Source of the DNA: a virus
Taxonomy: Duplodnaviria; Caudoviricetes
Length of the DNA: 47,416 nt
IMG/VR virus record: IMGVR_UViG_3300027533_000037
Coordinates: 1-47,416 of that record
Direction: 5' to 3' (one strand)
How positions within the stretch are numbered: the stretch's first letter is position 1; each line of letters starts with the position of its first letter. The position numbers were made by a program, and so were the translations under genes. Of this stretch, positions 166-47,416 are shown in pieces. A model generated the notes under the pieces. The model had not been told where the DNA came from, did not search any database, and saw only the letters and a program-made list of their open reading frames with translations.

Positions 166-262
166 GGTTATTGCCACCGCTGGTAGAATAGGTGGTCTCG
201 GCGACTTCCGGCCGACTTACGGAAGGTTCGCCGTTGTCTCCTATCGGGTGTGCGAGGGATAG
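2..262 (+). CDS. C-terminal part of Cas7/RAMP-like (Vipr-like) protein; continues from 46809 across the junction
   Basis: Frame 2 reads GCGAATGWDYEDRRRVVVQRSGINRTRPAMKVGWSATFLLMVTLPEYISPQVLNEVIATAGRIGGLGDFRPTYGRFAVVSYRVCEG, stop TAG 260-262. The C-terminal glycine-rich loop GGLGDFRPTYGRF is RAMP-like. Confidence 0.85.
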   Translation, partial: GCGAATGWDYEDRRRVVVQRSGINRTRPAMKVGWSATFLLMVTLPEYISPQVLNEVIATAGRIGGLGDFRPTYGRFAVVSYRVCEG

Positions 263-586
263 GTCCGGCAGGGAGCGGCTTGGGATGGCAGGGCTCGGTT
301 AGCTATGGCCGGGGGTGGCATGGTCCGGCATGGTACGGGGCAGCAATGCCCGGCATGGACGGGTGAGGTGTGGAGCGGCTGGCCGCGGCGCGGTCTGTCT
401 CGGTACGGCTCGGGGGGGCCTGGTGTGGTGCGGCAGGGTTAGGTCGGATTCGGCACGCCGTGGGGCGGCTCGGAATGGCTAGGTGTGGTCAGGCGGGCGT
501 CGGCATGGCGCGGCCTGCGGGGGTGCGGAGCGGCATGGCAGGCTCTGGGTAGGCATGGTGTGGCGCGGCTGGCCCTGGTATGGTGC
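262..586 (+). repeat. Array of 65 GGYNN-type pentamers in unbroken 5-nt register (putative guide RNA array)
   Basis: GGTCC GGCAG GGAGC GGCTT GGGAT GGCAG GGCTC GGTTA ... GGTAT GGTGC. By hand count 63/65 start with G, 54/65 with GG and 43/65 with GGY; the last two bases vary freely. Confidence 0.93.
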
Positions 587-1382: not shown

Positions 1383-3605
1383 ATGTCTGACCTGCCCGCG
1401 ATCGCGCTTCCGCCGGAACGCGAGACCGTCGATCGCGACCAGGATTTGCTGGGGCGGCAGCCGCGCGGCGGCGCCTCCCCGAAGTCGGGCATCCGCGGCC
1501 ATCTCGACGATCTGTTCGATGACATCAAACGCGGCTTCGACGACCAGGAAGACCGCTCCGACGACATCCAGGATTATTGGGACTGCTATAACTGCGAGGC
1601 GAACCAACACCGTTATTACAACGGTATCGCCAACATCTATTTCCCGATCATCCACGACGCCATCGAGGCGATCGTCACGAGGTATGTTAACCAATTGTTC
1701 CCGCAGGGCGGCCGCTATGTGCAGGCGATCAGCGCCGACGGCGACACCGAATCCGCGCTCGTCGCGATCCTCGACCACTATATCCGCCAGGGTAGCGTCA
1801 AGACCCAGGTCGCCGAACCCCTGGTCAGGAACGGCCAGGTCGAGGGGCAATACAGCCTCTACGTGGACTGGGCCGAGGTCGAGCGGCAGATTGTTTCACG
1901 TGAAACACACGGCCCCATTGACCCAGAAACCGGCCAGGAAATGCCGGGCGAGGAAATCGAGGACATCACCGAGGAGACCGTCATCGAGGGCTACCCGGTC
2001 CTTGAGGTGTTGCACGACCCCGATGTTCTGATATTGCCGCCGACGGCCGACACGGTGCAGGAGGCGCTGTCCTGCGGCGGCTCCGTCACGATCGTCCGCC
2101 GCTGGTCCAAGGACAAGATCCGGGCGATGGCGCGGGCCGGCAACATCCGCGAGGACGAGGCGGATAAGCTCGTCGCCGAGATGGGCCGGGTCGGCGAGGA
2201 GGAGCGCAACACCGAGCGCCACATCCTGGAACAGGTCGGCATCCGCGACGAGGGGCGGATGGCGCAGGTCTGGGAAGTCTGGGCGATGCTGCCGCTGGGC
2301 AAATCCGGGCGCTACGCCGAGGATGGCCGCAAACGCCTCTGCCGCATCTTCTTCGGCCCGAAGCGCTGCCAATTGGGCGCCAAGCGCAACCCCTACTGGA
2401 ACGACCGCTGCCCGCTGATTTCGCGCCCGGTCAAGAAGATGGCCGGCGCCGCCAAGGGGCCGAGCCCGATCAAGTACGTGGAATCGTTGCAATATGAAGC
2501 AAACGATGCGGTTAACGAAGGTGCCGACGCGGCGACACTCAGTGCGGCGCCCATCGTTGCCCGTGACCCCGAGAAGGTGGACGGTCCGCTTGTTTACAAC
2601 GTCGGGGCCGTCTGGGATGCGCCTCCCGGTTCGGTTGAGCTTCTCACATTTCCCGACCTTACCCCTCGCGCGGCAACTCGCGTCCAAATGGCCCTACAGG
2701 CGATATTCCAGAACCTGAATGTCAACCCGTCGATGCTGCCGTCTTCCTCCTCGCGCACGACGCAGCCGACCCAGGCGCAGATCGCCCAGGAGCAGGCGGT
2801 CGACCTGCTGACGACGGCGATGGGTGTCTCGACCCTGGAGGACGTGTTGACCGAGGCGGTCGCCTGGATCGTCGACCTCGACTACCAGTTCCGCGACCGC
2901 AATATCCTGATCCGGATGTTCGGCGAGGAGGGCCGTAAGGCCGAGATGCAGTCGGTCAGCCCCCTCCAGAACCGCAACGGCCTGACCTTTGTCTGGCGCG
3001 GCGGCGAGCAGGTACGGCAGAACGCGATGATGGCGCAGCAGGGCACGGCGCTCCTCAATGTGCTGCAGAATCCCGCATTGGAGCAGCGCCTCAAGGCCGA
3101 GGGCATCCAGTTGCGCCTCTCCAAGCTGGTCAGCCAGATGGTCGCCAACGCCTTTGGCCCGGAACTGGGCGAAGCCATCCTGTTCGACCAGCGCAACAGC
3201 CTCTCCTTTCCGCAGGACCGCGAGAACGAGATGCTGGTGGCCGGGTTCGAGGTGCCGGTGCACCCGCTCGACAATGACGAGGAGCACATCCCGGAGGTCA
3301 TGCGGGCGATCCAGGAAACGGGTGACCCGCACGGCACATTGCGGGTCCACCTCCAGGCCCACCTCGCCCAGCGCGCCGCCAAGGTGCAGGCCCAGATGAT
3401 GCAGCAGATGGCGATGCAGCAGCAGGGCCAACCGCCGCGCCCCGGCCTGCCAGGACCCGCCGGCCCAGGCCGCCCGCCCGGCGCACAACCTCCGGCCCCC
3501 GGCTCGCAGCCGGCCGGCCCGCAGCAGATGCGGGGGCCTCCAGGTATGGTGCATCCCGATATGATGGCTAGGGCCGGGGGAATCTCGATGCCCAGGAAGA
3601 TGTGA
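1383..3605 (+). CDS. Portal protein
   Basis: 740 aa between terminase and scaffold/capsid. Typical podoviral portal features (N-terminal YFPIIHDAIEA, RCPLISRP, Q/P-rich C-terminal tail, DNDEEHI motif). Confidence 0.85.
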   Translation: MSDLPAIALPPERETVDRDQDLLGRQPRGGASPKSGIRGHLDDLFDDIKRGFDDQEDRSDDIQDYWDCYNCEANQHRYYNGIANIYFPIIHDAIEAIVTRYVNQLFPQGGRYVQAISADGDTESALVAILDHYIRQGSVKTQVAEPLVRNGQVEGQYSLYVDWAEVERQIVSRETHGPIDPETGQEMPGEEIEDITEETVIEGYPVLEVLHDPDVLILPPTADTVQEALSCGGSVTIVRRWSKDKIRAMARAGNIREDEADKLVAEMGRVGEEERNTERHILEQVGIRDEGRMAQVWEVWAMLPLGKSGRYAEDGRKRLCRIFFGPKRCQLGAKRNPYWNDRCPLISRPVKKMAGAAKGPSPIKYVESLQYEANDAVNEGADAATLSAAPIVARDPEKVDGPLVYNVGAVWDAPPGSVELLTFPDLTPRAATRVQMALQAIFQNLNVNPSMLPSSSSRTTQPTQAQIAQEQAVDLLTTAMGVSTLEDVLTEAVAWIVDLDYQFRDRNILIRMFGEEGRKAEMQSVSPLQNRNGLTFVWRGGEQVRQNAMMAQQGTALLNVLQNPALEQRLKAEGIQLRLSKLVSQMVANAFGPELGEAILFDQRNSLSFPQDRENEMLVAGFEVPVHPLDNDEEHIPEVMRAIQETGDPHGTLRVHLQAHLAQRAAKVQAQMMQQMAMQQQGQPPRPGLPGPAGPGRPPGAQPPAPGSQPAGPQQMRGPPGMVHPDMMARAGGISMPRKM

Positions 3606-4243
3606 TGTTGGAGTGGCGACCGATCCCCGGCTATGAGGGGTTATATGAGGTCTCGGCGGAGGGGGATGTCCGCTCTCTGCCGCGCCTGATCCCGTGCGCC
3701 AGCGGCGAATCCCGACGTTTCGCGGGACGGGGGCTCACGCCAGACCCCAACAAGTGGGGGTATTTACGTGTGACGCTACACCGAAGTGGGCGCCAAAAGC
3801 GATGCGGCGTGCACGAACTGGTGGCGCTGGCCTTTATTGGCCCAAAGCCAGTTGGCGCGTGGGTGCTCCATCGAGACGACGACAAGCGCAAAAATATCCC
3901 CGGTAATCTCTACTATGGAACCCGGGCCGAAAATGCCAAGGATGCGATAGCGAATGGCCGCCAGGTTCGCGGCAGCCGCGTATCGAACAGCAAACTTACC
4001 GAGGCCGATATTCCGTCGATCTTGGCGATGCGATCCCGCGGGGAAACCTACAAAGGGATCGGCATCGCTTTCGGCGTGGCGACATCAACCATATTCCAGA
4101 TTTGCGTGGGGAAATGGTGGAAGGAGGCTGCGCTGGCCATACACCCCGACCAACTATCGAGAGCTGGGGGCATCGGATTCCCGCGCAAGATGCGGCTTGA
4201 CAAAACCACATCTAGCGGTCTTACCCTGATCGTGCGCGCGTAA
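3602..4243 (+). CDS. NUMOD4-HNH homing endonuclease
   Basis: EWRPIPGYEGLYEVSAEGDVRS (NUMOD4), VHELVALAFIGPKP..VLHRDDDKRKNIPGNLYYGTRAENAKD (HNH), C-terminal HTH. Confidence 0.9.
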   Translation: MMLEWRPIPGYEGLYEVSAEGDVRSLPRLIPCASGESRRFAGRGLTPDPNKWGYLRVTLHRSGRQKRCGVHELVALAFIGPKPVGAWVLHRDDDKRKNIPGNLYYGTRAENAKDAIANGRQVRGSRVSNSKLTEADIPSILAMRSRGETYKGIGIAFGVATSTIFQICVGKWWKEAALAIHPDQLSRAGGIGFPRKMRLDKTTSSGLTLIVRA

Positions 4244-7514: not shown

Positions 7515-7547
7515 ATAATGCCCCTCCTGTTTCGGAGGGGGCATTAT
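7515..7547 (+). promoter_or_regulatory. Hairpin sequestering the RBS and start codon of the HNH gene
   Basis: ATAATGCCCCTCC (7515-7527) pairs with GGAGGGGGCATTAT (7534-7547) with one bulge; TATAAT at 7514-7519. Confidence 0.65.
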
Positions 7548-8142
7548 GGAGTGGAGACTAGTGGTGGGGTATGAGGCGTTCTACGAAGTGAGCGATCAGG
7601 GCGATGTGAGGTCCTTGCCTCGTCGCGTTGGAGCCAAGGATGGTGGGACGCGCGTTCGGAAGCCTCATGTGTTGAGGCCGATCGTCTGGAAAAACCAGCA
7701 CTGGAGGGTGAGGCTCACTGACGCCTCGGGGGTCGCGAAGGAGAGAAAAGTTCACCACCTTGTGGCTGCGGCGTTTTTGGGGCCACGTCCGGCCGGTATG
7801 GGTGCGCTACACAAGGACGATGACAAGTCGCGGAATTGTCTGGCCAACCTTTACTACGGGACGCCGGCCCAAAATACGCGGGACAAGATGGCGAACGGCA
7901 AGCACAGATACGGCATCTCTCTTGGAGAGAAGCACGGGCAAAGCCGCCTAACCGAGAAGGATATTCCTGAAATTCTAAGGATGCGCGAGGGTGGAATGAC
8001 ATTCAGAGCGTTGGCCGCGGCTTTCGATATGTCGGAAATGGCGATACAGAGTGTCGTGCGCGGACGCAGTTGGGGGTGGCTCTCGGGGGTCAAGTTCGAG
8101 CCCAGGCGCGGTCGCTATGTGACGGTTAAGAGGAGCGCCTGA
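7546..8142 (+). CDS. NUMOD4-HNH homing endonuclease
   Basis: MEWRLVVGYEAFYEVSDQGDVRS; VHHLVAAAFLGPRP..ALHKDDDKSRNCLANLYYGTPAQNTRD; paralog of 3602-4243. Confidence 0.9.
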   Translation: MEWRLVVGYEAFYEVSDQGDVRSLPRRVGAKDGGTRVRKPHVLRPIVWKNQHWRVRLTDASGVAKERKVHHLVAAAFLGPRPAGMGALHKDDDKSRNCLANLYYGTPAQNTRDKMANGKHRYGISLGEKHGQSRLTEKDIPEILRMREGGMTFRALAAAFDMSEMAIQSVVRGRSWGWLSGVKFEPRRGRYVTVKRSA

Positions 8143-32283: not shown

Positions 32284-33191
32284 TCCGGTTTCTCCATTGA
32301 GATTGAGACACCCCTGCCGTCGCGCTTCAGGCGAACCAGCCCCAGTTGACAAAGCCCGACATCCTCTGGCACCAGGGCGGTCATCTCCCTGCGCACGATC
32401 GCGTGCTTCACCGCCGCGCCGTGCGTCTCGGCGAAATCGCGGGCCAGCCGCTGAAATTCCCCGGCCCAGTTCGGCCGCTCGGCCTCCGGCGTCACGTCCA
32501 GCAGGATCTCGCGGCGTTTCGGCTGCGGCTTTGGCGGGGCGACCGGAGCTGCCTCGTCCTGCGGCTCTTCGTCGGCCTCGACGTGCCGCCAGAATGCGCG
32601 TTCCTTGGCGATCAGCGCCGCCTGGTACAGCACGTCAACCTCTTGGTAGATAATCTCGTGCTTGCGGTTTCCGATCAGGCATGACAGCGCCCACCAGTCG
32701 CAGCCCATGACGGTCGCCTGATGTGTGCCGGCGGCGGTATAACGCAAAACCTCCTGTTCATAGGCTTGCCCCAAATGCTTGGCGTCGATGACGCAGCGAT
32801 GTCCCTGGGGAGTTGTTGTCATGCCGTCCAAATTGCATGCCATCCAGGGATAAGCCTCGCTGATCTGAAGCTCATCCTCGTACATATTTGCGTAGAACCC
32901 GGTCGCCACCGAGTCTGGGCCGTGCAGCGCGCTCCATATCTCGCGCATCAGCGGGTTGCCGCTGTAGTAGTTGATTTCTCGGCCCGTAGTTCTCTCGGCC
33001 CACGCCAAATTAAAAGGTTCCGTCATGCTGCCAAGCTGTACCGGCAGCACGCCAGACAGATTATCCCCCTCAGCAAGACCCTTCTTCTCGCGCCACACCG
33101 AGCGCCACTCGCCGGCCATTATTTTGGCCGCGTCGCCTGCTTGGACGTACCTGCGTCGCGCGGCGATCTGCTCCTTGCTTAGGCCGAGCAT
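32277..33191 (-). CDS. YqaJ / lambda-exonuclease-like recombination nuclease
   Basis: RRRYVQAGDAAKIM..VWREKKG..VQLGSMTEP..YPWMACNLDG..VIDAK; adjacent to ERF. Confidence 0.8.
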   Translation of the reverse strand: MLGLSKEQIAARRRYVQAGDAAKIMAGEWRSVWREKKGLAEGDNLSGVLPVQLGSMTEPFNLAWAERTTGREINYYSGNPLMREIWSALHGPDSVATGFYANMYEDELQISEAYPWMACNLDGMTTTPQGHRCVIDAKHLGQAYEQEVLRYTAAGTHQATVMGCDWWALSCLIGNRKHEIIYQEVDVLYQAALIAKERAFWRHVEADEEPQDEAAPVAPPKPQPKRREILLDVTPEAERPNWAGEFQRLARDFAETHGAAVKHAIVRREMTALVPEDVGLCQLGLVRLKRDGRGVSISMEKPEC

Positions 33192-33658
33192 CGCGCGAGC
33201 CTCCGCTTTTCGGAGATTTGGGCGTTCCTTTTTGTCCACTTTGCCTTTTGGCACTGGTAGCAGACTCGGTGCCCGTTAGCATCGATCCGAGAGCCGGCGT
33301 AGGGGTGTCCGTTTGGGCAAGAATCCTTGGCCAGCATCCTGGCGCGCAGAAGCTTCCCAGCGTCGCTGCGCCTGACATTATCGGCGTGCGTCACCGGCTC
33401 CAGGTGATCCGGGTTGACGCAACAGCGCATCCGACACAGGTGGTCAATCTCCAGACCATCGCCTATCGGCCCCCGAAAGAACAACCAAGCGGCGCGGTGG
33501 ACATAGATTTCGGTCCCGCCCCACTGGATACGGCCATAACCCTTCGGCGTGAGGTGCCCTAGCCAAATCCAGCAGCCGCTGTTCGGCTCGGGTTCGCACC
33601 CAGCCTCAAATCGCGGGAGAAACTCTTGCTGTCGCCCAGTTAGTCGGGGCTCGCTCAT
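33179..33658 (-). CDS. HNH endonuclease (HNH_3 type)
   Basis: GCWIWLG..GYGRI..VHRAAW..IDHLCRMRCCVNPDHLEPVTHADNVRR plus C-terminal CPNGH zinc motif. Confidence 0.9.
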   Translation of the reverse strand: MSEPRLTGRQQEFLPRFEAGCEPEPNSGCWIWLGHLTPKGYGRIQWGGTEIYVHRAAWLFFRGPIGDGLEIDHLCRMRCCVNPDHLEPVTHADNVRRSDAGKLLRARMLAKDSCPNGHPYAGSRIDANGHRVCYQCQKAKWTKRNAQISEKRRLARCSA

Positions 33659-35113: not shown

Positions 35114-35359
35114 ATGGCGGCAGCGCCGCTGCATTTAGCACCAGACCCCAGCGTTATCAAGCCGCCGGCTGATCCCCTCGTCGTGCTCTCGGCCGGGGAA
35201 CGCGAGGCGTTGCGCCTGGCGCACCGCAAGCGCGCAATCCCGCTGAAGGTCATGGCGCGCCGGCTCGGGGTCTGCCCGCACATGCTGGCGCGCTACCGCT
35301 GCGGCGAGCGCAAGCCGCGCCGCTCCCTCCTGGACCGCTGGTGGAAAGAACTGTCATGA
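35114..35359 (+). CDS. Small HTH protein
   Basis: AGGAG RBS; LKVMARRLGVCPHMLARYRCGERKP. Confidence 0.65.
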   Translation: MAAAPLHLAPDPSVIKPPADPLVVLSAGEREALRLAHRKRAIPLKVMARRLGVCPHMLARYRCGERKPRRSLLDRWWKELS

Positions 35360-36141
35360 GCCTTAAATTGCTCAGCTGGGCATTCGAGCAGGATCTCCCC
35401 TGCGCCGAAAAGATCGTGCTGCTGGCCCTGGCCGACATGGCCGACATGGACGGCAAGTGCTGGCCCTCGCAAACCCATCTAGCCAAGCGGTGCGGCATCG
35501 TCCGCGAGACGGTCAACCGGCAGATAAAAAAGCTGGTCAGCGCCGGAATGCTCCGGGTCGAACACAGGGCCGACAGGGATGGGCAACACTCAAATGTATA
35601 TTTTGTGCAGTGTGACGCAGGATCACATGTGACCCAAGATCACGTGACCAAAGATCACTCGGCACCTGACGGACGATCACTCGGGCACGTGACGGACGAT
35701 CACACAGAACCTTCACTTAGAACCTTCAAGGAATCTCCCCCTGTAGTCCCCCGCCGGGGGACGACGCTTACGGACTTCGAAAAATGGTGGGAAGGCTATC
35801 CGGCGAAGATCGGGAAGGGGGCGGCCGAGAGGGCTTGGGCAAGGGCCTGTAAGCAAGCCAGTGCCGGCGACATGATTGCGGGAGTTTCCCGCTATATCGC
35901 CAACAAGCCCGAAGACCGGGACTGGTGCCATCCGGCAACATGGCTCAATCAGAAGCGCTGGCTCGATGATTTTGGCGACAGCGAGCAGCGGCGCATCAAG
36001 CCGACCTCACCACCACCAAGACTGGAGAACGGCAATGCCGCCATCGGACGTGACAATGATCGGGTTTCCCAGCAAGGCGCATTACAGCGGCATTCGCAAA
36101 AGCCTGCGGAACCGGAGTTATTCCGGTCTGACCGATACTGA
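35356..36141 (+). CDS. Replication initiator (lambda-O-like, N-terminal wHTH)
   Basis: EKIVLLALADMAD.DGKCWPSQTHLAKRCGI.RETV; FEKWWEGYPAKIGK..HPATWLNQKRWLD; internal iterons. Confidence 0.85.
   Translation: MSLKLLSWAFEQDLPCAEKIVLLALADMADMDGKCWPSQTHLAKRCGIVRETVNRQIKKLVSAGMLRVEHRADRDGQHSNVYFVQCDAGSHVTQDHVTKDHSAPDGRSLGHVTDDHTEPSLRTFKESPPVVPRRGTTLTDFEKWWEGYPAKIGKGAAERAWARACKQASAGDMIAGVSRYIANKPEDRDWCHPATWLNQKRWLDDFGDSEQRRIKPTSPPPRLENGNAAIGRDNDRVSQQGALQRHSQKPAEPELFRSDRY
35612..35703. repeat. Five iterons GTGAC-N4-GATCAC (putative replication origin)
   Basis: Copies at 35612, 35629, 35644, 35666 (CTGAC) and 35689, inside the initiator gene. Confidence 0.8.
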
Positions 36142-42578: not shown

Positions 42579-42797
42579 ATGAGAGATCGTCGCTTTGTAT
42601 TGCTGCGCGACGTGGTGATCCCGGCCGGCACCGTGCTGGAGCGGGCCGCCAATGAGCGCGGCGGGACCTCGGCCGTCGAGTGCGTCGTGGCACTTGGGTC
42701 GGACAGCCACGGATATTTCGTGATCGCCGCCATCGACGGCGATGCGGCGAAGGACGCCCTGGGATGGGTCGAGGAATGCAACCCAGCAGCCGCCTGA
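42579..42797 (+). CDS. Hypothetical protein (72 aa)
   Basis: AGGAG RBS. Confidence 0.6.
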   Translation: MRDRRFVLLRDVVIPAGTVLERAANERGGTSAVECVVALGSDSHGYFVIAAIDGDAAKDALGWVEECNPAAA

Positions 42798-43021
42798 TCG
42801 AGGCCGAGCGCCGGGGCGAGCCGCGCCCCGGGCCAGACCGGCTGGCGGATGTGACCCTCACGGTGCGCGAGTGGTCCGTCGTGCTGGGCTCGCTCTCGGC
42901 AACGGCGCAGCACATGGTGCGGGCGAAGGCGGCCGGGCGACTGCTCGAGCAGATCGGCGACCAGGGCATCGTCGACGTTACCAACGTGCTGGGGGCCATC
43001 CGGCGTCAGGCGCGGCTGTGA
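42776..43021 (+). CDS. Hypothetical protein (81 aa)
   Basis: GAGG RBS; stop overlaps the MTase start. Confidence 0.5.
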   Translation: MQPSSRLIEAERRGEPRPGPDRLADVTLTVREWSVVLGSLSATAQHMVRAKAAGRLLEQIGDQGIVDVTNVLGAIRRQARL

Positions 43022-44490
43022 AGGGCGGCACGCTGTTCTCCGGCATCGGCGCGCCGGAATGCGCGATGCCGCGGGTCGACTGGCGCTGGTGCGCCGAGAC
43101 CGACCAGTTCGCCTCCGCCGTCATGGCGGCGCGGCATCCCGAGATCCCGAACCTGGGGGACGTGAATGAAATCGCCGCCGATGCAGTTGAGCCTGTTGAC
43201 CTCATCGTCTTCGGATCGCCCTGCCAGTCGTTCAGCGTCGCCGGCAAGCGCCTCGGCCCGGATGACCCGCGCGGCAACATGGCCCTCGTCGGCCTTCGCG
43301 TGGTTGGCCGCATCCGGCCCCGTTGGGTGGTTTGGGAGAATGTCCCCGGCGTCCTGTCGTCTGACGGAGGACGGGATTTTGGCGCCTTCCTCGGGCTCCT
43401 GGGGGAACTCGGGTATGGGTTCGCCTACCGGGTTCTTGACGCTCAGCACTTCGGAGTTCCACAGCGGCGCCGCCGCGTCTTCGTTGTCGGATATCTTGGA
43501 GACTGGCGACCTGCCGCGGCGGTACTTTTTGAGCCAGAAAGCCTGCGCGGGGATTCTGCGCCGCGCCGAGAAGCGGGGCAAGGAGTTGCCCGGCCAATTG
43601 CAAGCTGCGCTCCGGGCGGCAGCGGCTACCGATTTGACGCCGACACCGCCGACAACCTGATCGCCCGTTGCGTCGCAACGGGCACCAACGGCCAGCGCTA
43701 CGATTACGAGACCGAGACGATGGTGCTGGCGCATTCACTCCGCGCCGATGGCTTCGACGCCAGCAAGGACGTGACCGGGCGCGGCACGCCGCTGACACTC
43801 GCGATCCGGGGGCGCGGCGACAGCCATGATCTGGAATGGCGGGATGACGGGGTCGCAAACGCCGTGCTGACGCCCAACGGCGGGCGCGGCGGCATCGGTG
43901 TCGGGGCTATCGCGGCTTACGGCATCCGCCGCGATGCGGGACGAGACGGCGTGGCGAAGACGCCTTCGGACGACGGCTATGGCCGCGTCTCCCTGCGCGA
44001 CCCCGGCTTCAACGTCTACGAGGAGACGGCCCCGACGCTCGACAGCGCGCCGCACGCCGTTGCGTTCCACGAGAACCAGCGAGCCGAGACGACGCTCAGC
44101 GACACGGCTGGCGCTCTGAAGGTCGGTGGCGGCAAGCCGGGGCAGGGCTATCCCGCCGTGTTTGAGAGCCGCTTCGCGCGCAACGGTCGCGGCGCCCCCG
44201 ACGAGATCGTACCGCCACTCAAGGCGCAGTCGGGGCAGAGCGGGAAGGGCGATGCTGCGCCGCTGCTGCAATCGGCAATGTCCGTCCGCCGCCTCACTCC
44301 ACGCGAGTGCGAGCGCCTGCAAGGACTGCCGGACGACTACACGCTGATCCCCTATCGCGGGAAGCCAGCCGCTGACGGGCCGAGATACCGGGCGATCGGA
44401 AACTCGATGGCCGTACCCGTGATCGGCTGGATCGGCGAGCGGATCGCGGCCGTCGACGAAATCACGGCGTTCCGCGAGGCGGCGGAGTGA
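43018..44490 (+). CDS. DNA (cytosine-5) methyltransferase
   Basis: Motif I LFSGIG, IV GSPCQSFS, VI WENVPG, VIII QRRRRVF, IX RRLTPRECERLQG, X AIGNS. Confidence 0.95.
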   Translation: MKGGTLFSGIGAPECAMPRVDWRWCAETDQFASAVMAARHPEIPNLGDVNEIAADAVEPVDLIVFGSPCQSFSVAGKRLGPDDPRGNMALVGLRVVGRIRPRWVVWENVPGVLSSDGGRDFGAFLGLLGELGYGFAYRVLDAQHFGVPQRRRRVFVVGYLGDWRPAAAVLFEPESLRGDSAPRREAGQGVARPIASCAPGGSGYRFDADTADNLIARCVATGTNGQRYDYETETMVLAHSLRADGFDASKDVTGRGTPLTLAIRGRGDSHDLEWRDDGVANAVLTPNGGRGGIGVGAIAAYGIRRDAGRDGVAKTPSDDGYGRVSLRDPGFNVYEETAPTLDSAPHAVAFHENQRAETTLSDTAGALKVGGGKPGQGYPAVFESRFARNGRGAPDEIVPPLKAQSGQSGKGDAAPLLQSAMSVRRLTPRECERLQGLPDDYTLIPYRGKPAADGPRYRAIGNSMAVPVIGWIGERIAAVDEITAFREAAE

Positions 44491-46583
44491 GCGCGGCCCC
44501 CGACCTCGGCGCGGTCAAGGCCGAAATCCTCCAGATCATCTCCGCCGACAAGTGGAAGAGTCACCAGATTCTCTTCCGCCACCGCCACCAGTACAGCGGC
44601 GTCCCCACCGTGCCGGCCGAGTTCCACGAGGCGCTGGTTTCCGACTTTTGGAGTAGCGACCCCTATTCGATCATCCTCGCCTTCCGCGGCAGCGCCAAAT
44701 CGACGCTGGGCGAGGAGGACATCGTGCTGGCGGCGTGCCTGATGGCCTGGCGCAACATCGTCGTGATCTCCTCGAACGAGACCCGCGCGGCCGAGCGGCT
44801 GGCGGCGGTCGCCTACGAACTGACCACCAACCCCTTTATCGTCGACCTGTTCGGCGATTTGAAGGGCGACGCCTGGACCCAAACCAAGATCGTCACGACT
44901 ACGGGCGTCTGCGTGCAGGCGATCGGCCGCGACCAGGACATCCGGGGCATCAAGCACCTCGACCACCGGCCCGATTTCATCTTCGTCGATGACGTGGAGA
45001 GCCCGGAATCGGTGCAGACCCCGGACCAGCGCCGGAAGACGCTGAGATGGTTCCTCTCCGAATTGCTGCCGGCCTGCGCCCCGGAGCGCCGGGTCCGCAT
45101 CCGCGCGACGCCGATGGACGCCGAATCCCTGCCGATCAAGTTGCAGAACGAGTGGGGCTGGCCGACCAAGACGTTCCCGGTCGAGTACCTGGACGAGGAC
45201 GGTAAGCGCAAGGCGTCATGGCCCGAGGTGTGGCCATTGCCGAAGATCGACCGCGAGCGCCAGGGCTACGAGCGGGTCGGGGAATTGGCGGTCTGGGAGC
45301 GCGAGATGCTGTGCCGCGCCTTTTCCGAGAGCGACCGGATTTTCACCCGCGAGATGATAAAGGTGGCGCCCCGGGAGAAGACCTGGCAGGCCTGCTACGC
45401 GATGATCGACCCGGCCCGCTCCACGGGGCCGCAATCCGCCACCACCGGCTGGGCCGTGTGGTCCTGGATCAACAACCGCCTCGTGGTGTGGGCCGCCGAT
45501 GCGAGCTTCCTTCTCCCCGACGAAATCGTTGCCCTTGCCTTCGACATCCACGAACGGTTCGATCCGGTGTGGGTTGGCGTGGAGCTTGACGGCCTTGAAC
45601 AATTTCTATTGCAGCCGATGCGGCACGAAATGGCTCGAAGGGGGACTTATCTGCCCCTTAGAGGCGTCCGCGCTCCCCGCGGAAAGCTCGACTTCATCCG
45701 AGGGCTCCAGCCGTTCTTCTCGGCCCGCGAGGTCGAGTTCGCGCAAGCCCTACCAGTTCTCGCCGAACAGCTTCTCAACTTCCCGACGGGCAAGATAGAC
45801 GCGCCGAACGCGCTGGCCTACGCGCTGACAATGCGGCCGGGGCTGCCGGTCTACGACGGCTTCGGCGCCGAGCACATCGTCCCCGACCTCGCGCACGATC
45901 CGACCCGGCCCTTGTTCCTCATTGCCAACGCTACCGGCGCGATGACCGCGGCGGCGCTGGTGCAGCATTTCGACGGCCGGCTCCTCTTGTTGGCCGACTG
46001 GGTGCGCGAGGGCAATCCGGGCGAATTGGCGGGGCCTATATATAATGAGGCGGTGCTGTCGGCCGACGCGCCGCGCGACGCGCTGTTGCGCTCCCGGCCG
46101 CGCTCGTGGGACGCGATGCTGAAGGCGCCGGTGCCCGACCGCCTGACGAGCCGCAACCAGCCGCCCATCTGGATCGTGCCGCCGCACCACGAGGACAAGT
46201 ACACCAATGTCGGGCTGCTTCAGTCGATCCGGGCTATTCCGGCTGATCTGCGCCTCGGTGGCGCGGAGGCGGCCGGACAGGTTCATCTGCAAGATATGCT
46301 GGGCCGGATCTCCCGAGGCATGCCCGCTGTCGCGGCTTCCCCCCGAGCCCGATGGCTATGTCGTGCGTGCGCGGGAGGTTATTCTCGGGCCCTGGTGCGA
46401 GGCCGGCTCCAGGACGAACCGGAGCAGGGGCCGTACTCTCTCCTGATGGCGGCGGTCGAGAGCTTCCTGGGCCTCCAGCGCAAATCGTTTGCCTCGGACG
46501 CCGAAAGCGAGGATACGGATCAACCGTGGGGCGAGGATCGGTTCGGAAATAGATTCCGAACAGCAATGCCAGCTAGACGGTAA
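44487..46583 (+). CDS. terL: Terminase large subunit
   Basis: Walker A AFRGSAKST, Walker B FIFVDDVE, ATP coupling motif, nuclease MIDPA...KIDAPNALAYAL. Confidence 0.9.
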   Translation: MSAAPDLGAVKAEILQIISADKWKSHQILFRHRHQYSGVPTVPAEFHEALVSDFWSSDPYSIILAFRGSAKSTLGEEDIVLAACLMAWRNIVVISSNETRAAERLAAVAYELTTNPFIVDLFGDLKGDAWTQTKIVTTTGVCVQAIGRDQDIRGIKHLDHRPDFIFVDDVESPESVQTPDQRRKTLRWFLSELLPACAPERRVRIRATPMDAESLPIKLQNEWGWPTKTFPVEYLDEDGKRKASWPEVWPLPKIDRERQGYERVGELAVWEREMLCRAFSESDRIFTREMIKVAPREKTWQACYAMIDPARSTGPQSATTGWAVWSWINNRLVVWAADASFLLPDEIVALAFDIHERFDPVWVGVELDGLEQFLLQPMRHEMARRGTYLPLRGVRAPRGKLDFIRGLQPFFSAREVEFAQALPVLAEQLLNFPTGKIDAPNALAYALTMRPGLPVYDGFGAEHIVPDLAHDPTRPLFLIANATGAMTAAALVQHFDGRLLLLADWVREGNPGELAGPIYNEAVLSADAPRDALLRSRPRSWDAMLKAPVPDRLTSRNQPPIWIVPPHHEDKYTNVGLLQSIRAIPADLRLGGAEAAGQVHLQDMLGRISRGMPAVAASPRARWLCRACAGGYSRALVRGRLQDEPEQGPYSLLMAAVESFLGLQRKSFASDAESEDTDQPWGEDRFGNRFRTAMPARR

Positions 46584-46602
46584 TGACCGGGTGCGCTATT
46601 AT
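46574..46602 (+). promoter_or_regulatory. Sigma70-like promoter for the pentamer/Cas7-like module
   Basis: TAGACG (46574-46579)-N17-TATTAT (46597-46602); predicted start falls at the first pentamers. Confidence 0.55.
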
Positions 46603-46611
46603 GATGGCTGG

Positions 46612-46686
46612 GCCATGGCGCGCTGTGGTTTGGCTAGGGCGGCTTTGGTCCGCTTAGGCCTGGATCGGTTCGGCTAGGTAAGGTTT
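46612..46686 (+). repeat. Upstream tract of 15 GGYNN-type pentamers
   Basis: GCCAT GGCGC GCTGT GGTTT GGCTA GGGCG GCTTT GGTCC GCTTA GGCCT GGATC GGTTC GGCTA GGTAA GGTTT. Confidence 0.85.
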
Positions 46687-46799
46687 TCGCGGCCATCACC
46701 GCGAGAGAGCGCAACAACCAATCTTGAGCTTCCCGCTCCGGTTGTTGCTTTACGCAACCCCTGTGCATAGCGCTCCGGGCGTGATGGGACCGGAGCGGG
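46687..46799 (+). ncRNA. Structured RNA element (three hairpins, possible kissing loop)
   Basis: Stems 46687-92/46699-704, 46711-19/46740-48 and 46771-78/46790-97; CCATCAC (46693-99) complements GTGATGG (46781-87). Confidence 0.55.
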
Positions 46800-46808
46800 G
46801 AGACTGTT

Positions 46809-47416
46809 ATGGCGAGAAGTAAGGCTACTGCAGAAGTCGTCAGAATTGGCGGCGATGTTCCAACTAATGGATCTGACGAGGCTATTGCCTTTTTGGAACC
46901 GTTCACGGCTGAGGTCAGAATTGAGGGTTCGGCCGATATCCTGTTCCACCGCTGGAACCCGGAGGCGGTGGACGAAAAGGCGAAAGCGGCCAAGGGGAGC
47001 GCTGCAAAAAAGAGCGATAATATCGAAAGCTATGTTTATCGGAACGACGCGGGAGAGATTTGTTTGCCTGGAGAATATCTGCGCGGGGCTATAGTCGGGG
47101 CGGCGAAATTTCGCCAAGATCCGCGCTCTCCAAGAAAATCTGCGATGGACCTGTTCAAGGCTGGGGTGGTGTCATTGACCCCTTTGGCTCCGATGTATTC
47201 TGCGGCAAGCCGGGGCTCGGCAAGCGGCGGCAAGGCAAGCCACGGTGAGGCAGGGTGTGGCGCGGCGACCGGGTGGGATTATGAAGACAGAAGAAGAGTC
47301 GTCGTTCAGAGATCAGGCATCAATCGGACTCGCCCAGCTATGAAAGTTGGTTGGAGCGCGACTTTTCTCCTTATGGTCACGTTGCCAGAATACATCTCGC
47401 CGCAAGTATTAAATGA
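46809..47416 (+). CDS. N-terminal part of Cas7/RAMP-like (Vipr-like) protein, 234 aa in total across the junction
   Basis: GGGGAG RBS, ATG 46809, open to the window end: MARSKATAEVV..AEVRIEGSADILFHRW..ICLPGEYLRGAIVGAAKF..WDYEDRRRVVVQRSGINRTRP.. Lower GC than flanking genes. Confidence 0.85.
   Translation, partial: MARSKATAEVVRIGGDVPTNGSDEAIAFLEPFTAEVRIEGSADILFHRWNPEAVDEKAKAAKGSAAKKSDNIESYVYRNDAGEICLPGEYLRGAIVGAAKFRQDPRSPRKSAMDLFKAGVVSLTPLAPMYSAASRGSASGGKASHGEAGCGAATGWDYEDRRRVVVQRSGINRTRPAMKVGWSATFLLMVTLPEYISPQVLN
47204..47268 (+). repeat. 13 GGYNN-type pentamers inside the Cas7-like reading frame
   Basis: GGCAA GCCGG GGCTC GGCAA GCGGC GGCAA GGCAA GCCAC GGTGA GGCAG GGTGT GGCGC GGCGA (10/13 GGY). 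Confidence 0.8.
47252..47416. repeat. Terminal direct repeat / circular assembly overlap (copy 2)
   Basis: Matches 1-165 with 3 mismatches. Confidence 0.95.

Follow-up and report, generated by a model that had tools for sequence, protein, structure and literature searches.

VIPR is an RNA-guided gene silencer of phages that was described in 2026 (10.64898/2026.04.26.720920). The published vrRNA guides comprise 9-16 units and are tailed, staggered or separated by ribozymes, and vap genes are typical but not universal, being listed for types II-VII only (10.64898/2026.04.26.720920). The available text of the preprints establishes the code with its 1-nt skip, a filament with one Vipr per repeat, and silencing (10.64898/2026.04.26.720920, 10.64898/2026.04.26.720927), describes a Y pocket in the SUSP1 Vipr structure that excludes purines (10.64898/2026.04.26.720927), and presents staggered, tail-less vrRNA arrays in the legend of fig. 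S18 (10.64898/2026.04.26.720920). According to the part available from another report, SUSP1 requires Vap1 in infection, solo vrRNAs can be decoys, SUSP1-family phages that lost vipr carry solo vrRNAs targeting vipr, and guides that target vrRNAs match self less well than non-self (10.64898/2026.10.15.759431); a further preprint, likewise available in part, is related (10.64898/2026.10.21.760802). In these texts, as far as available, we found no account of how vrRNAs get reprogrammed.

The locus described here lies in a 47,416-nt stretch of viral DNA (the window), which represents a complete phage contig of 47 kb carrying genes for terminase, the major head protein, replication and recombination. 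It shares with the VIPR systems a phage-borne homolog of SUSP1 Vipr of about 200 aa with a RAMP fold and flanking GGY/NN arrays, a code with a 1-nt skip in which the skip falls on the codon wobble and the targets lie in other phages, and, for the upstream guide only, a predicted structured tail as in the type II form. Unlike the published guides, its main array runs over 65 units in one register and without tails; unlike the published systems, it has no vap gene that we could find, an in-frame guide inside vipr, and a cassette placed in the terminase tail together with a recoded replacement. We conclude, with a probability of about 0.88, that the tract at 262-586 is a phage VIPR guide array, likely composed of several guides of 10-12 units that would silence genes of competing elements. 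The VIPR system itself is known; what appears new here, against the texts available, are the nested anti-vipr guide and the cassette in its own target.

Other features of the contig include three HNH endonuclease genes (3602-4243, 7546-8142 and 33179-33658), two of them with NUMOD4 and none inside the cassette, and a C5 cytosine methyltransferase gene (42742-44490) directly before the terminase. Tandem repeats of 15 and 23 nt at 35611-35703, inside the replication initiator gene (35341-36141), are possibly origin iterons.

The vipr gene, like the array, the guides, the promoter match and the terminase tails given below, is on the plus strand. It continues across a 165-nt repeat at the contig ends (47252-47416 equals 1-165), with the 5' part at 46809-47416 and the 3' part, which holds the thumb and G-loop (D216-F217-R218), at 1-262; the stop codon is at 260-262 and the protein has 234 aa in all. 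The same 1043 bases across the junction are contiguous, without a difference, in the related locus L008. The copies of the end repeat differ at 127, 130 and 131, all synonymous in vipr, and since L001, L002, L003 and L008 carry the head version, the contig tail is probably derived from a different allele present in the sample. We found 5987 homologs of the protein. Foldseek searches with its predicted model (pLDDT 84.8) returned type VII Cas7 and Csm3 as the best PDB matches (E from 2.8e-6, identity 8-16%), hhalign of its profile against SUSP1 Vipr gave an E of 7.4e-11 and a probability of 97%, and both proteins belong to PHROG 4652; Pfam and PADLOC gave no family. The RNA- and DNA-contact residues of SUSP1 Vipr, H17, K82, R138, D177, W178 and R179, stand against the aligned K100, R175, D216, F217 and R218, with H47 as the counterpart of H17 by an ungapped alignment by eye alone, and equivalents of K33 and R39 were not made out in the alignment; residue numbers of the SUSP1 reference protein agree with the structure preprint in 12 of 13 checked. 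We identify the 234-aa protein as Vipr, a stand-alone RAMP homolog with predicted RRM core, thumb and G-loop; the gene, and the fact that its system is published, had gone unnoticed in the preliminary description. Class 1 CRISPR RAMPs (Cas7/Csm3) resemble it in predicted fold, thumb and G-loop, but neither a cas operon nor a repeat-spacer array was seen in a gene scan of 25 ORFs, in PADLOC or in Rfam. A homolog with 52% identity in phage DSL-LC04 (OR003939.1, 22438-23046) is annotated as a helix-turn-helix regulator, and two sister phages retain just a 31-codon G-loop remnant of vipr (G002:C1:24948-25031 and G005:C1:4468-4551). One RNA-labelled run covers part of vipr only and is probably DNA.

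The 65-unit GGY/NN array (262-586) takes as its first G the final base of the vipr stop codon, and this start within the vipr stop leads us to regard it as a vrRNA-type array. The preliminary description had proposed 65 pentamers in exact register, and this was confirmed by splitting the tract into units, by entropy (0.23, 0.72, 1.69, 1.96 and 1.86 bits at pentamer positions 1-5, the last two near the maximum), by autocorrelation (0.47-0.52 at lags that are multiples of 5, 0.23-0.37 at other lags) and by a shuffle test, in which the best-phase GGY count of 1000 base shuffles had a mean of 9.55 and a maximum of 17, against 43 of the 65 units observed. The highest-scoring 65-unit window outside 1-1000 of the contig had 14 GGY. 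Units start with GG in 54 of 65 cases; the 11 exceptions (9, 17, 18, 25, 28, 38, 40, 48, 52, 57 and 63) had been listed exactly, as had the start of the NN string. Three folds spanning the array showed no structure beyond shuffles (z -0.03, -0.85 and +0.84), in agreement with the claimed absence of spacer hairpins; the guides are not separated by hairpin tails, nor was a structured tail seen at the 3' end (z -1.11). Tandem Repeats Finder did not report the array, and an Rfam search gave no meaningful match. A GGTTT unit ends several arrays of the clade (L004, L007, L009; window 46682-46690), in some cases followed by a hairpin, and the main array is not ended by one. The blocks at 367-386 and 557-576, taken earlier as a hint of growth by duplication, are indeed identical at 17/20 positions, but a pair at least this similar occurred in 157 of 300 unit-shuffled arrays, which places the likeness at chance level.

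A slippage microsatellite or a protein-coding repeat would account for single-unit deletions, which occur, and for the minus-strand open frames that overlap the 3' part of the array. We consider the probability of this explanation practically negligible: stop codons are present in all six frames, the tract tolerates indels of 5, 11 and 50 nt that would disrupt a reading frame, the units are not homogenised, and arrays are tightly linked to vipr genes. The proposal that the tract stores information in a guide-like array was upheld by the adjacent vipr gene, the conserved NN, the stops in all six frames, and the blocks gained and lost among strains.

These blocks became evident in a comparison of alleles from five near-identical strains and contigs from 8 public runs, one of which may be the source of the window. 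A 60-nt block, units 44-55 (477-536), with a 5-nt microhomology at its joint, is absent from three strains and three runs, and a similar block is found in the array of L005, a less closely related phage with 82% identity in Vipr. A 50-nt block, units 54-63 (527-576), is missing from one strain (L002) and from contigs of two runs (X5 and X6). An insertion of 11 nt after unit 21 (L002, L003 and two runs) puts the units that follow one base out of register, and further alleles carry a deletion of 5 nt, a loss of 1 nt in unit 65, or replaced 5' blocks; array alleles coexist within runs X5 and X6. The earlier statement that the 325 bp hold no indel is therefore correct for the window allele and fails for sister alleles (-5, -50, -60, +11, -1). 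Indels that are not multiples of 5, which had been named as a sign against guides, do technically occur as +11 and -1, but the guide reading survives them, since register shifts of a single base agree with the staggered vrRNA arrays already published. The +11 alleles also share with these arrays the arrangement of tail-less guides in a row. In the window allele, unlike staggered arrays, no shift occurs over 65 units, and boundaries are thus not marked by register.

Substitutions across units 15-65 were concentrated at the third pentamer position, where 12 of 43 sites are variable; the figure is 3 of 84 for NN and 0 of 86 for the G sites (position 3 against NN, Fisher p 1.4e-4, a guide only, since the strains are related and the test overstates their independence); for pyrimidine sites alone the values are 9/34 at position 3 and 2/46 at NN (p 0.007). 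This count omits 45 positions near ambiguous gaps, by which 6 of 21 substitutions were dropped. NN letters that had been described as varying freely are thus the more constant ones between strains, and of the two kinds of change anticipated among relatives, gain and loss of whole blocks of 10-12 units was found, with little NN turnover. The NN content is conserved, as would be expected if it is read. The non-GG units had been suggested as processing or guide boundaries, but only one of eight breakpoints adjoins such a unit, with 2.35 expected at random, and this count, together with the presence of non-GG units inside fully matching guides, indicates that they are not punctuation.

An uncut, very long guide with a single 195-bp target or a single filament had been left as one option, and the unbroken register without internal tails or hairpins is compatible with it. 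This seems very improbable to us, given that blocks are exchanged independently of each other, with a predicted target for one exchanged block, that the tract loses its register at the insertion of the +11 allele, that published guides have 9-16 units (10.64898/2026.04.26.720920), and that no long match was found in the sequences searched. The other option, a multiplexed guide, fits the coming and going of 10-12-unit blocks, and the block alleles are consistent with a likely multiplexed array of guides of about this size.

Similar arrays are common in the family. From 160 related loci, 139 with distinct vipr genes were retained, and 136 of these have a pentamer array of at least 9 units near vipr. 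By a permissive caller, runs of at least 50 units are present in 23 of 139 loci and of at least 65 units in 5, the window phage included, so that the length of 65 units is not unique. In L025 (1565-4488), in-register runs of 83, 115, 98 and 52 units surround a single vipr gene, and pentamer runs lie on the minus or both strands near vipr in L010 (3119-3625), L077 (3024-4184) and L014 (2715-2830). Two loci (L038 4373-5179 and L073 4116-4652) show, by a motif finder, a second ORF with Vipr-like motifs about 1.1 kb past the vipr match, which could be another RAMP gene or a spurious call. In runs X5, X6 and X10, the 3' half of vipr (L008 3579-3660, window about 136-217) also occurs as a different allele, with more than 20 mostly third-position changes, which co-segregates with a replaced 5' array block, and run X6 shows a +1/-1 pair at L008 3503-3507.

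Predicted targets were found for guides outside the main array. A 16-unit upstream guide (46607-46686) is preceded directly by a sigma70-like promoter match (46574-46602; one found, 0.6 expected by chance), the -35 of which lies inside the recoded terminase tail. L004 retains this promoter match, though its 17-nt spacer differs. A predicted hairpin tail lies past the guide (46682-46760, z -3.5). Units 1-13 are antisense to the terminase 3' end of sister phages, with 25/26 matches in L180 and L190 (identical there, and possibly one phage), 24/26 in L184 and 23/26 in L186-L188; the 14 relatives scored ranged from 16 to 25 of 26. The phage's own terminase matches at 20/26, with both Arg codons taken from the other codon family. 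Windows of 9 units reached 18/18, against at most 15/18 in ten shuffles. For this guide, as for the nested guide and the main-array allele of L003 discussed below, the 1-nt skip yields natural targets and other skips do not. The upstream guide of L003 scores 19/22 against the terminase of the window and 15/22 against that of L003; since the window's guide fits the L003 terminase only at 21/26, against 20/26 for its own, we reject reciprocal targeting and retain the one-way case. The upstream guide of L004 matched no terminase end (12-14/26), and isolated phages match the window terminase at under 30%.

The position of the guide gains meaning from the anatomy of the terminase large subunit gene (44487-46583). 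Its last 10 codons and stop (46551-46583) are a working, recoded version, and a displaced second copy of these codons and stop (587-619) begins directly after array unit 65, at the right end of the cassette; the two encode the same peptide with 24/33 nt identical. Six cassette-less sister contigs match the displaced tail at 24-28/33 and the working tail at 19-25/33, and in L180, L186, L188 and L190 the terminase runs straight into a homolog of ORF 770. Because the displaced tail is nearer to the cassette-less sisters than the working one, we infer from these alignments that a cassette of 1.29 kb inserted into the terminase tail, inside the stretch that its own first guide reads, and restored the gene with the recoded tail. 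Between the two tails vipr is the only gene, with neither a vap nor a nuclease gene, and no vap gene was found beyond them: the next ORFs (56 aa and 195 aa), which lie outside the duplicated tail, had no PHROG or Pfam match. The 56-aa ORF (616-786) occurs, among the fetched loci, only in cassette-bearing strains and has length variants. One sister, G001 (99% complete), has no vipr match; the other sister contigs are fragments.

A further guide is apparently nested in the vipr gene itself, as a 13-unit pentamer array in the vipr frame (47204-47268, about residues 132-154), in a loop modelled with low confidence (pLDDT under 50 for residues 141-148). Units 1-9 spell, in codon frame, an N-terminal conserved segment of rival vipr genes, with 18/18 matches in 11 of the 139 vipr genes and 17/18 in 25; skips of 0 and 2 reach 13/18 and 50 shuffles at most 16. 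The allele of most sister strains differs by one base (17/18). The phage's own copy of the site (46992-47018) matches at 13/18, owing to a Ser written as AGC and two amino-acid changes. Different arrays occupy the same loop in L107, with 18/18 in 7 of 139 vipr genes and 15/18 in its own, and in L124, with 17/18 in 2 of 139 and 14/18 in its own, each aimed at a different conserved stretch of vipr (no shuffle above 15). The shortened 7-unit array of L005 gave nothing above shuffles. At least 12 extra residues in this loop are present in 18 of 120 listed homologs; decoding by protein only (15 of 18 scored) held too little information, with only P0015 beating all 15 shuffles. The nested guide folds with z +1.02 and shows no structured tail. 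In the text of the VIPR preprints available to us, we found no mention of an in-frame guide inside vipr.

Since the nested guide lies within the vipr mRNA, its dose would follow vipr expression, and together with an own site still matching at 13/18 this could point to feedback control of the phage's own vipr instead of an attack on rivals. We regard this as improbable: for each of the three nested guides that could be decoded, the carrier's vipr is a poorer match than other vipr genes (13 against 18, 15 against 18 and 14 against 17, of 18), and in two of the three the own site differs by encoding the same amino acid with a codon of the other family. The preferred reading, aimed at rivals, recalls the vipr-targeting solo vrRNAs of the SUSP1 family, as far as these are described in the available text, in that wobble-aligned guides are directed at rival vipr genes; there the guides stand alone, whereas the window's guide lies inside a complete vipr frame, and, unlike the solo guides, the loop holds other anti-vipr guides in other lineages.

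The 65 units themselves proved harder to decode. In a sister allele, that of L003, the main array has a 5' block that spells the G-loop of 6 of 139 vipr genes at 22/22, with 20/22 in the window's vipr, 17/22 in that of L003, and at most 15 for other skips. A gapped search with sliding windows, as had been suggested, found nothing above shuffles for the window's array: the best match in its own genome was 16/20, against 16-18 in 20 shuffles, with no self-target, and there was none above shuffles in 707 kb of vipr flanks or in 207 kb around sister terminases. In five related genomes the best match was 19/22 (shuffles up to 18), also with none at the protein level; a 19/22 match of units 30-41 to the ejection-protein gene of sister G002, barely above shuffles, was set aside. 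The mismatch-tolerant search covered less than 2 Mb, and elsewhere exact patterns only were scanned (four IMG/VR scans and one of GTDB), with chance-like matches except for one HTH_17 gene. This lead came from an excisionase/AlpA reading of units 11-3 in antisense, picked by eye; its 5 exact IMG/VR matches represent one HTH_17 gene of one element in two variants, with 22/24 over units 3-14, and we rate it as weak, as the same pattern has 3 matches in 185,579 GTDB genomes, none in such a gene and none extending upstream. Units 41-33 had 2 chance-like matches in contigs of 38% GC, and units 22-30 had 8 in one unrelated phage family, without extension; both were discarded. The L001 5' block and the L005 arrays gave no target in our searches. 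No convincing target was thus found for the window's 65 units in the sequences searched, and the 5' block of a sister allele does have a predicted one.

One further lead concerns host defence. Units 43-52 resemble the active-site codons of CBASS cyclases, a family that was picked post hoc. In a set of 19 PF18144 loci, the highest-scoring position fell at the active-site motif in 6, with a top value of 17/20 (L233), which was equalled by 1 of 200 shuffles in a test that does not control for the choice among families. The best possible match in 92 of 93 motif-bearing cyclase homologs was mostly 16-17/20, with a maximum of 18/20. An exact viral scan gave 4 matches and a search of 401 genomes with up to 2 mismatches gave 3, against 1 for the control; none of either was a cyclase. 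These values are suggestive of a weak candidate guide (block 477-536) against CBASS cyclase genes.

The shortage of targets raises the question whether the tract is a VIPR array whose inner units are mostly spent guides, or a decoy or sponge for Vipr subunits, own or rival. Several findings favour this: our searches gave no target for any window of the 65 units, GGY is absent from 22 of them, coexisting strains have lost whole blocks, and solo vrRNA decoys have been published, according to the available text (10.64898/2026.10.15.759431). It is opposed by the stronger conservation of NN than of position 3, by the presence of block 44-55 in a phage with a Vipr of just 82% identity, and by the limited reach of the target search, mismatch-tolerant over less than 2 Mb and exact elsewhere. 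We consider this reading unlikely on balance, though it deserves to be kept in mind.

Under the favoured reading of an active guide array, Vipr would polymerise on the guide RNA with one subunit per pentamer, and the NN pairs would read double-stranded DNA, skipping each third base, so that genes of competitors are silenced. One or a few transcripts would start from the promoter match at 46574-46602, and the 65 units would be divided among some five to seven guides, each 10-12 units long. Purine or otherwise non-GGY units (22/65) run against the expectation from the Y pocket of SUSP1, as given in the available text. Repression of the terminase and vipr genes of rivals in co-infection would then favour the allele that bears the cassette. 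Since two neighbouring guides spell the genes of rivals and not the phage's own rewritten copies, the cassette is likely a self-protected weapon against sibling phages.

Homing-endonuclease-type selfish cassettes sit in their own target site. The present cassette resembles them as an element in a conserved essential gene that it would target in cassette-less relatives, with the occupied allele predicted to be resistant, but it differs in having no nuclease and in that recognition would be by RNA, with silencing as the outcome, and is not a member of that class. As no nuclease is present, spread would come from the exclusion of sensitive alleles and not from cut-and-repair. We tentatively propose that the cassette is a nuclease-free, RNA-guided selfish element in which at least the nested guide is active, a proposal we hold at somewhat less than even odds. 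Its first guide would silence the terminase tail of cassette-less siblings, the in-frame guide in the mRNA would turn any Vipr, own or rival's, on rival vipr genes, and the 65-unit array would store guide modules that recombine. We give even odds to the drive-like behaviour and the nested guide, and the part in which units 43-52 are aimed at cyclase genes of the host is rather doubtful.

These observations bear on how VIPR guides evolve. Near-identical strains show guides changing by gain, loss or replacement of blocks of 10-12 units, sometimes at short microhomologies, with the NN held constant. If the in-frame vipr guide is true, one RNA is both message and guide, and the weapon is tied to the resistant allele. 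Lying within the sequence that it targets, the cassette may have a means of spreading that needs no nuclease, and the long tail-less arrays would be a natural model for multiplexed VIPR guides. An anti-CBASS guide, if true, would make VIPR an RNA-guided tool of anti-defence.
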